Source of the DNA: a virus
DNA: 64,000 nucleotides
Strand: one strand, 5' to 3'
IMG/VR virus record: IMGVR_UViG_3300044640_002221
Location: 72,924-136,923 of that record
Positions 4,886 through 42,449 of this stretch are shown in pieces. Made by a program: the position numbers and the translations under genes. The notes under the pieces are model-generated. The model saw only the letters and a program-made list of their open reading frames with translations, was not told where the DNA came from and did not search any database. The first letter of the stretch is position 1. Each line of letters begins with the position of its first letter.

Positions 4886-5584
4886 TTAATTGGGTTGAAA
4901 GTTTTTTGCTCCTATACCATGAACGTCAACTACTATATTGCCAAACCTACCATTACACTTACCACAATCTTGACAAGTTATGGCATAGTTACTACTATCT
5001 GCTGGGCAGTAGGTTTCATCCGGCAGTACAGGTTCATGTTTTTGTTTAACTCTAAAGGTCTTCCACCCTCTTGAGTTTGCTTCTGTTTTTAGTCTTACAC
5101 TTTCTACTGAAGCTTGTATATGTTGTCTCCATCTAGAGTCACAATCTCTCCATCTGTGAGTGTACCCTGTTTTGATTCTTGTCACTTTTAGTAATGCCTC
5201 CCATATTTCAAAGGGAACTGCAGTAGCTTCTCCATAAGCGGCTATTCTTAAATCTCTACCATTTAACTTGTAAGAAGTTTTAATTAAAGGATACTTATCT
5301 TCCTTATAAGCCTTGTACACCTGTCCTATAGTCATGTGGTTAACATAACAGATTCTTCCTTTACCTTTATCTCCCCTTAGAGGACAGCTACCACATACTG
5401 ACTCATCTGCTCCACTCCTAATAGCTTCTGTAGGATGAATATCTTTTGGTAAAATCCAAGTCTGTAACATCCAACCTGTCTTGCGATTAGCTGAGGGTCT
5501 AGTTGTACCTGTTACCAGCAAAATAATAGAAGCTCCATTAATTAATGAAGCTCCCTCCCATATAACATTTCCGTTTGGTATCAT
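4886..5584 (-). CDS. Conserved Cys-rich phage protein (radical-SAM-like/Gp88-like, tentative)
   Basis: SANRKTG...CGSCP...CYV, LRIAAYGE, TGYTHRW, C-terminal CPA...TCQDCGKC...VHG. Confidence 0.5.
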   Translation of the reverse strand: MIPNGNVIWEGASLINGASIILLVTGTTRPSANRKTGWMLQTWILPKDIHPTEAIRSGADESVCGSCPLRGDKGKGRICYVNHMTIGQVYKAYKEDKYPLIKTSYKLNGRDLRIAAYGEATAVPFEIWEALLKVTRIKTGYTHRWRDCDSRWRQHIQASVESVRLKTEANSRGWKTFRVKQKHEPVLPDETYCPADSSNYAITCQDCGKCNGRFGNIVVDVHGIGAKNFQPN

Positions 5585-5633
5585 CTGTTCTGGCTTATTT
5601 TAATTTCTTTCTTTCGCTCTCTCTCGTCTTTTT

Positions 5634-6182
5634 TTATTCAGACTTGAACAAGTCCTGCTCAGCTTTTCTTCTTAGGACTAGCCCCTTTAAAATCCCTCTT
5701 CTACCTCTTCTCCATTTTGGCAGCTCGTCCGCCGCCCCGGCATAATCTCCTCTGTTCAGCTTCTTCAGTAAAGAAGACCTTTGAAAAGCTCCGTCTCCTG
5801 TATTAAAAGTGAAAGATACTAGAGCACTAAACTGGTTATCAGTAAGAGGAACCTTTACATATTTACTAACTACAGCCTCAAATTCTTTCATATCTTGCTG
5901 TAGCAGTAGCTCTGCTTTCTCTACTGTAATAGCTCTACCTTGCCTTGCGGTTTTACCTGTATGACCCCACCCAATACTTTTTACACCTGATGGACATAAG
6001 TAAGGTCTTAGGTACAAACCTTCAAAGTGTTTAACCAGTTTTAACCCCGCTGGGTTGATACGTCTTTCTTGTTTAACTGGTTGTATACTGACTTCTTCTT
6101 CTTCTTCTTGCTTAAAGTCTATTAAAGGTGTATGCCACTTGAGAGTAACTGCTAATAGAAGGGATTCAAACATTTCTGTCAA
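5634..6182 (-). CDS. Phage lysozyme (GH24) endolysin
   Basis: INPAGLKLVKHFEGLYLRPYLCPSGVKSIGWGHTG...LTDNQFSALVSFTFNTG...GLVLRRKAEQDLF. Confidence 0.95.
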   Translation of the reverse strand: MTEMFESLLLAVTLKWHTPLIDFKQEEEEEVSIQPVKQERRINPAGLKLVKHFEGLYLRPYLCPSGVKSIGWGHTGKTARQGRAITVEKAELLLQQDMKEFEAVVSKYVKVPLTDNQFSALVSFTFNTGDGAFQRSSLLKKLNRGDYAGAADELPKWRRGRRGILKGLVLRRKAEQDLFKSE

Positions 6183-6268
6183 TTGAGTTCTACATCCGCT
6201 GAAGTGCGGCTAACTATTGGTCTATCCCTATTTTCTCACTAGTTGAAGATTAATGGAATGTTATAAGC

Positions 6269-6305
6269 TAAAAGCCTCTTAAATCAATGATTTAAGAGGC
6301 TTTTA
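6269..6305. terminator. Long perfect hairpin, probable (bidirectional) intrinsic terminator
   Basis: TAAAAGCCTCTTAAATCA-A-TGATTTAAGAGGCTTTTA, a perfect inverted repeat with A/T tails on both sides. Confidence 0.85.
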
Positions 6306-6596
6306 GGTGCTGGCGTAACAGCCTAGAGGTTAACTATCGTTCTGAGAATAACGTATAAGACCTTGTTCTAGGGTTTTATCGAGCGTTGACCCTTAATGGT
6401 TGAGCTTTGATAAATAAGAACTTTGAGCTTTTAGGATTGAAAGTTGAACTTTGAAGGTTGAGCTTTGAAGTCTTTTCTTCGGATGGTTCACTGACCACTA
6501 AAGAACGATACGCTTTATGTACACTTCGCCGAGTGTTGGTTAGCCTTTGCCCCAGCTAGAGGGTTCTCTGATTTAAGTTATTCGCTATGACAGCAC
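6306..6596 (-). ncRNA. Candidate ~290-nt structured ncRNA downstream of the coiled-coil gene
   Basis: Ends pair: GUGCUG/CAGCAC and UCAUAGC/GCUGUUA. Internal helices: GAAUAAC/GUUAUUC, UAUCGUUCU/AGAACGAUA (9 bp) and AAGACUU/AGGUCUU, the last closing the repeat loop. Ends at a terminator. Confidence 0.7.
6376..6468 (-). repeat. 13 near-tandem heptamers (consensus TCAAnnn)
   Basis: Minus strand: tcaaagc tcaacct tcaaagt tcaactt tcaatcc taaaagc tcaaagt tcttatt (ta) tcaaagc tcaacca ttaaggg tcaacgc tcgataa. Confidence 0.9.
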
Positions 6597-6610
6597 TGTA
6601 ATTATAACAC

Positions 6611-7234
6611 CTAAACTTCGATTGTGGTTGTGGAGTTACTAACTGAGATAATGTCATCTACATTATTCATAAAAGCCTCTACGTCATCATGAAGTTTATT
6701 GATTAAAGTAACCAAGTTGAGCGGATCTATAGCAGTAGCTTGATTACGTTCTAAAAAAGGTGTAGCAACGGCTTTATAGTCTGACTCTGCTATATCAGTC
6801 TTTCCTTGAAAGGTAGACTTGATTAAGTCATCTAACCTATCAGAAACTCTGTTATTTAGGGAAGTCACGGTAGATTCTACTTTCTTCAGCTGCTGCTGCA
6901 TTACTTTACCAAGCTGTAGTCGGTACAGGATAGACTGTTTAGTCTCAATAGCAGCGGCTACAGTGTACTCCTTACCAGCAATAGTAACTTTGGTTGCGCC
7001 GTTACTGTTAACTATTGCTTGCTTGATTTTCTCACGATAGTCAATAAGGTCGTTAATAGCCTGGTAACTGCTCTTAATAGCTTTTTCTAACTCTTCTTGG
7101 CTTCGGTAGCCTACTGGCAGCTGACCTGGCTTTTCCATTAAGAAGACAAAAGTAGACTCAGAAGTGAGTTTTGTGATGCGATCGCCTAAAGTTTTGAGTT
7201 CTTTGAGGGCGCGAGTGATTGTTAAGGTTGTCAT
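6611..7234 (-). CDS. Alpha-helical coiled-coil protein, DIP1984/DUF6847-like (tentative family)
   Basis: MTTLTITRALKELKTLGDRI...YQAINDLIDYREKIKQAIVNSNGATKVTIAGKEYTVAAAIE...VDDIISVSNSTTTIEV. Family recalled from motif pattern, not searched. Confidence 0.6.
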   Translation of the reverse strand: MTTLTITRALKELKTLGDRITKLTSESTFVFLMEKPGQLPVGYRSQEELEKAIKSSYQAINDLIDYREKIKQAIVNSNGATKVTIAGKEYTVAAAIETKQSILYRLQLGKVMQQQLKKVESTVTSLNNRVSDRLDDLIKSTFQGKTDIAESDYKAVATPFLERNQATAIDPLNLVTLINKLHDDVEAFMNNVDDIISVSNSTTTIEV

Positions 7235-7269
7235 AAAGAAGATTGATTGTTGAATGTGAATATTGTAAC

Positions 7270-7905
7270 TTAATCTGGAAGACTTGGTAGCTGTACTAGA
7301 GAAGTATCTACCTCGGTTAGCATTGCCTCTTGTGAATGTAGAATCCCCGTGTCTTTAGACCTGGGAGTGTCAAGCTGTATTTTCTTAAGTGTCTTCACTT
7401 TACTAACAACTGTTTCACTGATATTCTGCCATAAAACATTAATAGGAGTCTGAAGAATCTCTATAATAGTAAGTGGGGCTGGTGGAATAACAACAGCTTT
7501 TGATGACTGTTCCTCTACGTCTGCTGATCTTAAAGCTTTTACATTAGATTTTGCGTTAGTCACCATCGTAGTAGATTCTAGGCTGCCAAAATCAAGTTCT
7601 AACTGGATAAACTCTTTATTGAGCTTACTTTCTTCTACTATCTCTGGATTAACTTTATTCTCTACAAAGTGTGTAGCTATGTTAGATAAAAGTAATGGAA
7701 AGTAGACAGCTCCAATACAAACTGTGATCAGACTTAAAGTTATTAGCTGTAGTGCTTTCAAACTTAGCAAGATAGCTTCTTTGAGTTGTTTTAAGGATTC
7801 TTCTGTCCACAAATCATTCTTGGCGTAATGAATAACTTGCTGAGTGTACAAGTCTAAACGCTCTTCTAAAGTTGTTAAAAGTTCTTTTTGACTGGGTAAA
7901 TACAT
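7270..7905 (-). CDS. Hypothetical membrane protein; C-terminus read through an IS605-type right end
   Basis: Hydrophobic segment ITLSLITVCIGAVYFPLLL. LDTPRSKDTGIL is the antisense reading of the IS end. Confidence 0.6.
   Translation of the reverse strand: MYLPSQKELLTTLEERLDLYTQQVIHYAKNDLWTEESLKQLKEAILLSLKALQLITLSLITVCIGAVYFPLLLSNIATHFVENKVNPEIVEESKLNKEFIQLELDFGSLESTTMVTNAKSNVKALRSADVEEQSSKAVVIPPAPLTIIEILQTPINVLWQNISETVVSKVKTLKKIQLDTPRSKDTGILHSQEAMLTEVDTSLVQLPSLPD
7341..7373 (+). mobile_element. IS200/IS605-family right end remnant
   Basis: GAAT-CCCCG-T-GTC-TTTA-GAC-CTGGG-AGTG-TCAA. Guide GAAT, subterminal hairpin and TCAA cleavage site, as in the IS608 right end. Confidence 0.75.
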
Positions 7906-8002
7906 AATTCTTTTCCTTTCTGTTAATTAAATAGTTTGGGGAGTCATAAGACCCCCCCTCTTTCTCTTTTCTTTTCTTTTCGTTTCTCTTACTTTGAGCT
8001 TA

Positions 8003-29470: not shown

Positions 29471-29520
29471 AAAGTTTTTATTTTTATTCTTTCTCTATTC
29501 TTTTTTCTTATTATTTTAAG

Positions 29521-29594
29521 TGCCCTCTGGTGAACTCGAATCACCAACCGATTCCTTAGAAGGGAATTGCTCTGTCCAATTGAGCTAAGAGAGC
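29521..29594 (-). tRNA. trnR: tRNA-Arg (TCT)
   Basis: GCTCTCT/AGAGGGC acceptor stem, anticodon arm ATTCC-CTTCTAA-GGAAT, T-loop TTCGAG. CCA not encoded. Confidence 0.95.
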
Positions 29595-29598
29595 TTGA

Positions 29599-29669
29599 AG
29601 CTGGTAATAGGATTTGAACCTATGTCTTTCCTTTACAAGAGGATTGCACTGCCATTATGCTACACCAGC
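29599..29669 (-). tRNA. trnT: tRNA-Thr (TGT)
   Basis: GCTGGTG/TACCAGC acceptor, TCCT-CTTGTAA-AGGA anticodon arm, GGTTCAAATCC T-arm. Confidence 0.9.
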
Positions 29670-29673
29670 AAAG

Positions 29674-29746
29674 GTAGCATGAAGAGACTTGAACTCTCAA
29701 CCTGCTGCGCCACAAGCAGCCGCTCCACCTTTGAGCTACATACTAC
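29674..29746 (-). tRNA. trnH: tRNA-His (GTG) with encoded G-1
   Basis: G-1:C73 pair, TAGTATG/CATGCTA acceptor, GCTGC-TTGTGGC-GCAGC anticodon arm, GTTCAAG T-loop. Confidence 0.92.
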
Positions 29747-41800: not shown

Positions 41801-41852
41801 TACTCTTTCTCCCTTTTGTTTTAATAGGAAAGAGGGTTGCCCCTCTCTCAAT

Positions 41853-42449
41853 TTACTCTTGACCAGCAATATATTCCTTGAGCCAATAAACAAGCTCATC
41901 CATTACTACTGTGTCAGCAATCATCTGTTCTGCACGCTTCTCCTGATAAGTTTCCTTAACCATTCCCTCGGCTATAAATCTTATTAGCTTGGTACAGTCT
42001 AAAGGACACTCTTTTAAAGCAGAGTGGAGAGGTTCTTTTAAGACCTGCTCGCCATCTTTTTGGTGCCAGAGTATGATTTCATAAGCCTGACTCTCTTTAG
42101 AGTACCTAGCTGCTGGGTTCTGTTCATCCCACAGTTGCCTGAGTTCTTCCAGAGGTATGTAACCAGCCCCAACCACAAAAGTAGGGCTTTTATCTTCATT
42201 AATGATTGGTACATCTGAAACAAGCCTTAAGGAGGACAAGTACATCATCCCCTCTTTACTGATAGCCAGCACCACACCTTCCGGTAAGTTCTCAGCATCT
42301 ATGGGAATCCATTTAACCTGATTGCTTGTAGAATCTGTCATTGTTTGGGACTCCTCTTCGGTTTCTGTCATTCTTGTTGTTGCCTCATTAATAAAGCTAA
42401 CGTTGGAATCATGAACAAGCATACTATCACTGCCTGCAAGCTTCCCCAA
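41853..42449 (-). CDS. Hypothetical protein
   Basis: VKWIPIDAENLPEGVVLAI...GYIPLEELRQLWDEQNPAARYSKES; true start probably downstream of the track start. Confidence 0.75.
   Translation of the reverse strand: MGKLAGSDSMLVHDSNVSFINEATTRMTETEEESQTMTDSTSNQVKWIPIDAENLPEGVVLAISKEGMMYLSSLRLVSDVPIINEDKSPTFVVGAGYIPLEELRQLWDEQNPAARYSKESQAYEIILWHQKDGEQVLKEPLHSALKECPLDCTKLIRFIAEGMVKETYQEKRAEQMIADTVVMDELVYWLKEYIAGQE

Follow-up and report, generated by a model that had tools for sequence, protein, structure and literature searches.

A Heptad-Repeat Non-Coding RNA and Its Adjoining phrog_1491 Gene in Phages: Probably an Uncharacterised Protein–RNA Particle

Related Systems and the Studied Locus

The locus described here lies in a 64,000-nt stretch of the virus record IMGVR_UViG_3300044640_002221 (hereafter, the window). 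Its minus strand carries the gene of a 207-aa helical-hairpin protein (6611–7234) and, downstream of it, a 290-nt non-coding RNA (ncRNA) with a row of 7-nt repeats (6307–6596). Several systems can be compared with this pair. RAGATH-27 (RF03100) is an Rfam candidate small RNA without an assigned function. The trp leader RNA of Bacillus subtilis contains eleven short repeats with non-conserved bases between them, each bound by one subunit of the TRAP oligomer. The sponge RNAs CsrB and RsmZ bear a short motif repeated many times, by which they bind many copies of a dimeric protein. In the type III toxin–antitoxin system ToxIN, the protein gene adjoins a repeat RNA that binds the protein; its repeats of about 36 nt lie upstream of the gene and are cut to monomers by the nuclease toxin. 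The phi29 pRNA, GOLLD, and ROOL are phage-encoded structured RNAs that form architectural assemblies, and GOLLD and ROOL are often found near tRNA genes. Finally, a RAGATH-18-derived reRNA is reported to co-occur stably with an upstream IS607 TnpB, the two forming an RNA-guided DNA endonuclease (PMC11061315).

RAGATH-27 corresponds to the 5′ end of the RNA class to which the window element belongs, and shares with it the CGAAAAC...AAACU string and the first hairpin. The Rfam model has 86 positions, about a quarter of the RNA; it treats the first 46 nt, including CGAAAAC and the 5′ strand of the long-range helix P1, as unpaired, and it includes neither the helices P1, P2, P3, and P7 presented below nor the heptad array and the protein partner. 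It matches three related loci (L067, L068, and L070) at 92–93 bits (gathering score 76.1), exactly at the start of the element, and two more (L053 and L032) below the threshold. The window RNA gave no match to RF03100 even at E 10 (window 5500–8000); its counterpart of the string is CGAAUAAC-UUAAAUC followed by hairpins, a resemblance seen by eye and not by score. The literature on RAGATH-27, DIP1984, heptanucleotide repeats, and T5 small RNAs was searched, and no description of the full RNA, the array, or the protein partner was found. The preliminary description of this DNA had named no characterised system matching the locus, and correctly so, although the 5′ 86 nt of the RNA class are catalogued in Rfam.

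The resemblance to the TRAP system lies in the eleven short RNA repeats. However, TRAP is a β-sheet 11-mer ring on 3-nt units in an mRNA leader, whereas the window pair consists of a helical hairpin, predicted to be a dimer, and 7-nt units split 7 + 4 on a stand-alone knotted RNA. CsrB and RsmZ differ in having GGA motifs located in hairpin loops, a variable number of them, and a host regulator encoded elsewhere. Unlike the ToxIN repeats, the window units are 7 nt long and lie downstream of the gene. The phi29 pRNA, GOLLD, and ROOL have no sequence or Rfam relation to the element, and all three lack both a heptad array and an obligate adjoining protein gene. The likeness to the reRNA of IS607 TnpB is that of a RAGATH motif adjoining a protein gene (PMC11061315); that RNA is a nuclease guide, whereas in the window pair neither a nuclease fold nor a guide-like variable end was detected and a repeat array is present. 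A transfer-messenger RNA (tmRNA) was rejected, there being no ARAGORN call at the element and no Rfam tmRNA match in 5500–8000. The RNA of a retron or a diversity-generating retroelement was also rejected, since no RVT_1 match was found in the 136.9-kb record (estimated to be 71% complete). The locus probably encodes an uncharacterised protein–RNA particle.

Linkage of the RNA to the Protein Gene

The pair was sought from both of its sides. Starting from the protein, the array was found within 900 nt downstream of the gene and on the same strand in 106 of the 128 distinct loci with enough downstream sequence, versus none of the 128 within 900 nt upstream. Twelve of the 22 misses were inspected, and all twelve hold visibly variant copies: some are of the type of the Pseudomonas phages Flaumdravirus, with GAGCUG and a hairpin at the spacer, and in others, nested tRNA genes lengthen the 5′ domain. 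Starting from the RNA, viral contigs were scanned for motifs, which gave 80 loci. In all 36 loci with a real P1 and a CGAAAAC-like motif, the protein gene precedes the RNA (E 1e-8 to 1e-64); of the other 44, 42 are chance matches with neither feature, and two are too near a contig end to be scored. No third conserved gene was found, as no other open reading frame (ORF) family is common to more than 21 of 140 loci. That the protein and the ncRNA form an obligate gene pair of fixed order and orientation is therefore well supported, and the downstream element that the preliminary description had seen in the window is indeed shared by homologues.

The distance from the stop codon to the element varies from 3 to 124 nt, always on the same strand. 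In most members, the RNA begins only 3–60 nt past the stop codon, and its co-transcription with the upstream protein gene is therefore likely. In the window, the element begins with GUGCUG at 6596, 14 nt past the TAG of the 207-aa ORF. This 14-nt spacer (6597–6610, minus strand) contains a possible extended −10 promoter, TGTTATAAT (6601–6609), read from the sequence; a simple promoter scan did not call it. Across the family, TAnnnT stands just before P1 in 28 of 91 elements, compared with 11 of 91 in a control window. The enrichment is modest, and, judging from these counts, an own promoter is not a general feature of the family.

Architecture of the RNA

All parts of the window element lie on the minus strand and are given here from 5′ to 3′. 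The 5′ strand of P1, GUGCUGUCAUAG (6585–6596), is followed by CGAAUAAC (6577–6584), which occupies the position of the family's CGAAAAC and is a variant of it, and by the 5′ partner of P3, UAACU (6576–6580). The variable 5′ domain (6475–6571) includes the 5′ strand of P7, UCAGAGAA (6564–6571), and hairpins at 6541–6558, 6521–6536, and 6475–6505. The heptad array (6382–6467) comes next. A segment at 6367–6381 combines the motif CGAUAAAACC (6372–6381; family form UCGAUAAAAUCC) with the 5′ strand of P2, CCUAGA (6367–6372). The 3′ core (6322–6348) contains the 3′ strands of P7 (UUCUCAGA, 6341–6348), P3 (AGUUA, 6331–6335), and P2 (UCUAGG, 6322–6327). The motif context of P2 is UCGAUAAAACCC; its CC opens P2, and the GG of GGCUG closes it. 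The invariant GGCUG (6319–6323) is exact in the window, and directly 3′ of it lies the 3′ strand of P1, UUACGCCAGCAC (6307–6318). P1 here has 12 positions with two mismatches. Without a gap, the element is followed by a terminator-like hairpin (6268–6306), a perfect 19-nt inverted repeat that folds as about 18 bp. Thus, four conserved long-range helices can be drawn in the window: P1, P2 (CCUAGA/UCUAGG), P3 (UAACU/AGUUA), and P7 (UCAGAGAA/UUCUCAGA).

The paired ends, the 14-nt offset, the terminator, and the helices GAAUAAC/GUUAUUC, UAUCGUUCU/AGAACGAUA, and AAGACUU/AGGUCUU, all listed in the preliminary description, are present in the sequence. The region folds better than 100 of 100 shuffled sequences (z −3.4), a score to which the terminator contributes. 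An Rfam scan of window 5500–8000 found no family matching the ncRNA element itself; at the terminator, there are weak matches to plastid 3′-UTR (untranslated region) hairpins on both strands, at the level of chance. ARAGORN found no tRNA or tmRNA at the element, and only three tRNAs elsewhere in the window.

A search with nhmmer using a two-sequence alignment revealed dozens of loci on the strand of the gene, 100–400 nt past it, with proteins 30–41% identical. Their common plan consists of a 5′ strand, CGAAAAC, a variable hairpin domain, an A-rich row of heptads, UCGAUAAAAUCC, and, after some 60 nt more, GGCUG together with a 3′ strand pairing with the start. The element ranges from 228 to 494 nt in length. 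The variation appears to fall mostly within the 5′ domain because the array keeps its size.

In several phages, tRNA or tRNA-like genes are nested in the variable 5′ domain between CGAAAAC and the array (L006:3213–3287, L021:2237–2326, and L025:3238–3314); they comprise a tRNA-Tyr, a tRNA-Thr, and one gene with an odd anticodon loop. In four further loci (L008, L078, L102, and L155), a T-arm-like GGUUCGAAUCC hairpin lies directly before the array. Processing of the tRNA-nested RNAs by RNase P and RNase Z would give two pieces joined by P1, P3, and P7.

Covariation and Pseudoknots

Base pairs were counted by our own anchoring on sequence motifs in 102 unique elements, and the counts were tested against partner strands permuted between members. 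RNAalifold, applied to a 32-sequence MAFFT alignment, recovered only P2, the ends being misaligned, and the anchored counts were used instead. When partners were sought for the stretch 3′ of GGCUG without requiring the CGAAAAC-like motif, the best one lay just before such a motif in about 58 of 65 loci.

P1 helices have 9–17 bp in different loci and unrelated sequences. Of ten P1 positions, nine are paired in at least 93% of the elements and the sixth in 89% (87 of 98), with AU, UA, GC, CG, and GU pairs all frequent. The longest perfect helix reaches 11.3 bp with the true partner, compared with 5.0 bp with a permuted one. In its family form, P2 consists of five pairs, joining the CC of AAAUCC and three bases after it to three bases and the GG of GGCUG; its two fully variable positions are 93% paired, with all four Watson–Crick types occurring there, and RNAalifold found this helix independently of the anchored counts. 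P3, formed between the bases that follow CGAAAAC and the segment immediately 5′ of the 3′ strand of P2, and P7, formed between the 5′ region and the 3′-domain hairpin, scored z 9.9 and 6.9 versus permuted partners, whereas a negative control scored z −1.0. At the level of sequence comparison, covariation of P1, P2, P3, and P7 was thus demonstrated; a lack of covariation was among the outcomes that the preliminary description had named as refuting its reading. P3 crosses P2, and P7 crosses as well; therefore, the core holds two pseudoknots.

Two other helices behaved differently in the permuted-partner test. The stem AAGACUU/AGGUCUU, earlier taken to close the array, is present in the window and in its closest relative; however, it has no family-wide support (z 1.2) and is clade-specific. 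A hairpin between the spacer of the array and UCGAUAAAA also has no family support (z −1.7).

Heptad Array

The MAFFT alignment of 32 elements brings the repeat units into one-to-one register, as seven heptads, a 9-nt spacer (CUUAUUUAU), and four heptads, followed by CGAUAAAAUCC. The window copy has exactly this 7 + 4 layout, with seven units at 6419–6467, the spacer at 6410–6418, and four units at 6382–6409. The unit can be written as N-A-A-r-g-y-U. In units 1–7, A2 is conserved in 94–100% and U7 in 97–100% of the 32 elements; in the last four units, A2 is conserved in 90–100% and U7 in 56–97% (56–72% in two of them). A3 reaches about 70–90% in most units, and the other positions are loose. 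A profile of the array matches 95 of the 102 unique elements, most often aligning over 99–103 nt; arrays with one additional unit form a minor class, and in a few, a hairpin is inserted at the spacer. Counting the units with a position weight matrix was abandoned, as the matrix collapsed to N-A-A-N-N-N-U and over-counted; the alignment and the profile replaced it.

The 7-nt period was noted in the preliminary description and is borne out by Tandem Repeats Finder, which gave periods 7, 14, and 28 at 6398–6470, and by the mean identity at lag 7 (0.43) and lag 14 (0.41) over a background of 0.24 in 91 related elements. The count of 13 heptamers given there has to be corrected: there are eleven, arranged as 7 + 4 around the conserved 9-nt spacer, with CGAUAAAACC after them. 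The isolated array folds weakly (−12.6 kcal/mol, z −2.4). Taken together, the data show that the core presents its heptads in single-stranded form, in an array of exactly 7 + 4 units that each combine U-N-A-A with three looser bases.

Comparison with the Closest Relative

The element has its closest relative among viral contigs in L003 (196.9 kb), where a protein 62% identical to that of the window is followed by the same element, about 85–89% identical at the nucleotide level, with long invariant runs. In this comparison of two sequences, the RNA element is more strongly conserved than the adjoining coding sequence. The changes between the two copies include a compensatory one in P1, with a C-G pair in the window and U-A in L003, and a swap of U-A to A-U in P7, where UCAGAGAA/UUCUCAGA becomes ACAGAGAA/UUCUCUGU. 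The −10-like box TGTTATAAT is retained as TGTTAGAAT, and the array-closing stem AAGACUU/AGGUCUU is retained too. The helix UAUCGUUCU/AGAACGAUA, among the first to be noted in the window, is weakened. A 40-aa ORF in the repeats (6376–6498) is disrupted in L003 by two 1-nt indels; the repeats are therefore not coding, in line with the preliminary description.

A blastn search of 6200–7300 against deposited phages gave no match, and among viral contigs, an exact 19-mer of the RNA occurs only in the contig of L003. A single-protein scan of viral contigs returned nothing, whereas alignment-based scans did find relatives. The closest Logan relatives have proteins 79–93% identical. An exact 20-mer match in a GC-rich contig of a Methylocella metagenome-assembled genome from a genome collection is a chance match that falls inside and at the end of a coding region.

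Protein of the Module

The 207-aa protein belongs to the phrog_1491 family (E 1.8e-56; residues 1–207 on profile positions 2–209 of 211). Searches of Pfam and NCBIfam with it gave no match. In the AlphaFold (AF2) model (predicted local distance difference test, pLDDT, 91), the chain forms a long helical hairpin, one end of which carries a small sheet. The preliminary description had called the protein DIP1984-like. This call is plausible as a distant fold relationship: the uncharacterised Corynebacterium protein 3kdq was retrieved with a profile E of 0.0098 and a Foldseek E of 0.01, and the Atlas lists DIP1984/DUF6847 at a TM-score of 0.48. Its VIA Z is 10.8 (root-mean-square deviation 8.4, 151 aligned), and the next rows have Z of at most 7.4. 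These other neighbours (F-BAR, ESCRT-III, and IpaB) are generic helical hairpins within the noise for helical proteins and were set aside. The fold searches detected no nuclease fold. TRAP chains are absent from the fold lists, although a family is not excluded by such an absence.

A homodimer prediction scored 0.60, the best of three controls scoring 0.00, with a symmetric interface. Runs agree in at least 95% of contacts, and the partner pLDDT is at least 88. The mark of 0.60 was reached by 20 of 30 proteins solved as one-chain pairs and by 1 of 23 solved as single chains, counts that are rough since our own alignment was used. The modelling supports self-association of the protein as a symmetric dimer.

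At 50% identity, the protein family falls into 3,595 clusters, nearly all made up of stand-alone proteins of 200–215 aa, and it occurs in 745 of 50,697 deposited phage genomes; the carriers are mainly virulent phages. No support was found for the label "tail fiber protein" that commonly accompanies the family in GenBank (for example, NC_024139.1 gp130, NC_023719.1 gp530, and NC_015263.1 ORF93) and is given as the phrog_1491 function: the fold is a helical hairpin, and the neighbours of the gene in T5-like phages are non-structural. Rad, the anti-retron protein of the T5 family, is the product of a different gene (ORF75, 189 aa).

Proposed Function and Alternative Explanations

On balance, we favour the following explanation: 6307–6596 on the minus strand is the gene of a stable, doubly pseudoknotted ncRNA of a very widespread phage class, which forms a two-part module with the upstream phrog_1491 gene, and the RNA and the protein assemble into a ribonucleoprotein particle in which the heptads are docking sites for the protein. 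In such a particle, the knotted core (P1/P2/P3/P7, CGAAAAC, GGCUG, and UCGAUAAAAUCC) would be a rigid platform presenting the array, and the eleven heptads would serve as U-N-A-A sites occupied by protein copies, probably dimeric. Such an assembly would be of defined stoichiometry and not an open-ended filament. Binding of the protein to the heptads is plausible. Recognition by protein with a defined stoichiometry is favoured over an open filament because two to three bases are conserved per 7 nt, because the number of units is fixed, and because there are precedents of gene-adjacent partner RNAs, such as the IS607 TnpB reRNA. The preliminary description had proposed that one subunit would bind each heptamer and polymerise on the RNA; the fixed unit number and the few conserved bases agree with protein binding at multiple sites, but the predicted interface is that of a symmetric dimer and not of a head-to-tail polymer.

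Several points weigh against this explanation. The protein has no recognised RNA-binding fold, its sole standout structural neighbour being the uncharacterised 3kdq; a symmetric dimer interface does not give a polymer by itself, and eleven sites are an odd number; P1 of the window copy has its two mismatches, and P3 has just 5 bp. In addition, phages of cyanobacteria, Proteobacteria, and Bacillota have a near-identical heptad consensus despite proteins of only 30–40% identity, which a universal host partner would explain equally well. It is therefore conceivable, if rather unlikely in our estimate, that the RNA acts on a universal host component, with the protein as a helper, chaperone, or processing factor and the heptads as a sponge, rack, or decoy. 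Possible variants are pairing with the 7-nt anticodon loops of UUN tRNAs (Gln, Lys, and Glu) or the soaking up of a conserved host RNA-binding protein or nuclease. Apart from the nearly unchanged consensus over phages of three bacterial phyla, with proteins down to 30% identity, such a role would fit the position of the module in islands of tRNAs, ribozymes, and tmRNA, the tRNA genes nested in the RNA, and, in our own reading of the consensus, the complement of y-U-N-A-A-r-g, C-Y-U-U-N-A-R, which has the form of a UUN anticodon loop. However, the only conserved positions of a unit are A2, A3, and U7, which is typical of protein recognition and not of 7-bp pairing; the protein is always present, although a pure host sponge would not need it, and no host partner was identified.

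The remaining explanations have much less in their favour. It is improbable that the element is just a cis-acting 3′ UTR of the protein's mRNA, serving stability, termination, or feedback without a function of its own. Its constant position 3–124 nt past the stop codon on the same strand, the hairpin at its end in the window, and the lack of room for an own promoter in most copies would agree with a 3′ UTR; but 228–494 nt, two pseudoknots, and a fixed array of eleven units go far beyond what a 3′ stabiliser needs, the element is conserved above the coding sequence, whole tRNA genes lie inside it in some phages, and a −10-like box is found in the window and L003. A pair of the type III toxin–antitoxin kind, in which the repeat RNA neutralises the protein, shares with ToxIN the adjoining protein gene and repeat RNA; it is very improbable given 7-nt and not ~36-nt units, an RNA located downstream, repeats embedded in a large knotted RNA, mainly virulent carriers, and no nuclease fold detected. 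Least credible of all is a function of the repeats at the DNA level, be it as iterons, as a packaging site, or as a promoter array. The idea is suggested by short, directly repeated units lying between genes, yet the covarying helices use G-U pairs, which are valid on one strand only, the orientation to the gene is fixed in all loci, and a 7-bp period keeps no single face of the DNA helix.

As for the biological role of the proposed ribonucleoprotein module, its surroundings point to phage RNA, tRNA, or translation biology, or to the countering of host defences that act on RNA, because in many phages it sits among tRNA genes, self-cleaving ribozymes (twister- and hammerhead-like), RAGATH-36, and tmRNA, and because tRNA genes are nested in the RNA. 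In T5-like phages, the module borders the tRNA-rich region, in which an anti-defence island has been described (bioRxiv 10.1101/2023.03.15.532788). Its location in tRNA-rich accessory regions with T5-like counter-defence genes (bioRxiv 10.1101/2023.03.15.532788) therefore makes the module a natural candidate for RNA warfare between phage and host. A bolder proposal, which we put forward tentatively, is that of a new kind of phage ribonucleoprotein, in which a doubly knotted RNA platform with eleven fixed 7-nt docking sites templates a defined assembly of a helical protein. With it, phages ranging from T5 relatives to cyanophages would act on the tRNA or translation apparatus of the host or blunt RNA-targeting defences. 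In one form, the particle would present itself to the anticodon loops of UUN tRNAs, the targets of anticodon nucleases, as a rack or a decoy.

No characterised counterpart exists for eleven 7-nt sites set in a fixed row along a knotted RNA. If the particle is real, it is among the most widespread uncharacterised RNA–protein modules of tailed phages, including T5-like phages of E. coli and Salmonella, and such a row of 7-nt sites would be a new way for RNA to template protein assembly. In Rfam, the 86-nt family RAGATH-27 can be enlarged to cover the whole RNA.

Distribution and Neighbouring Features

The pair is present in phages of Proteobacteria and Bacillota, among them the T5-like FFH1 and SP15, Klebsiella, Vibrio, and Ralstonia phages, Bacillus phage G, Lactococcus phage 949, and Brevibacillus phage Jenst. 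In FFH1 and SP15, a 442-nt unannotated gap separates the gene from a small ORF, after which comes the endolysin, the gene order being as in the window; the gap lies between ORF83 and ORF82 (41821–42262 in SP15). In these two phages, the gene is flanked on one side by genes for metallopeptidase, RNase H, and nucleotide metabolism, and the opposite flank holds lysis and tRNA genes. Two very large contigs, Ga0209728_1000004 (349 kb; L089 and L101) and JGI24024J18818_10000001 (332 kb; L109 and L111), each have two separate copies of the protein gene, every copy with its own downstream RNA.

Other RNA genes were noted in the neighbourhood of the module in relatives (L053:1144–1205 and 1664–1806; L032:785–839 and 1428–1555; L051:937–1065; L040:448–857). 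Their types include RAGATH-36, which exceeds its gathering score, twister-P1 ribozyme-like sequences that fall short of theirs, a weak match to the RAGATH-1 hammerhead, and many tRNAs, and L040 encodes a phage tmRNA near the module (114.9 bits). In many other phages, the RNA lies inside a tRNA array; in the window, the three tRNA genes (Arg-TCT, Thr-TGT, and His-GTG; 29520–29745, minus strand) are far from the heptad RNA.

The neighbours of the element in the window are the 207-aa ORF (6611–7234, minus strand) and a phage lysozyme gene (5634–6182, minus strand; Phage_lysozyme E 2e-44). This endolysin has an N-terminal extension with a hydrophobic start and then six glutamates encoded by a perfect (GAA)6 at 6092–6109 (CTT ×6 on the plus strand). 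Upstream of a 211-aa ORF (7270–7905), an intergenic region holds a long purine tract (7945–7995, minus strand) of GAAA/GAAAA repeats ending in seven G; a weak, chance-level Rfam match to a frameshift element was recorded at 7931–7957.

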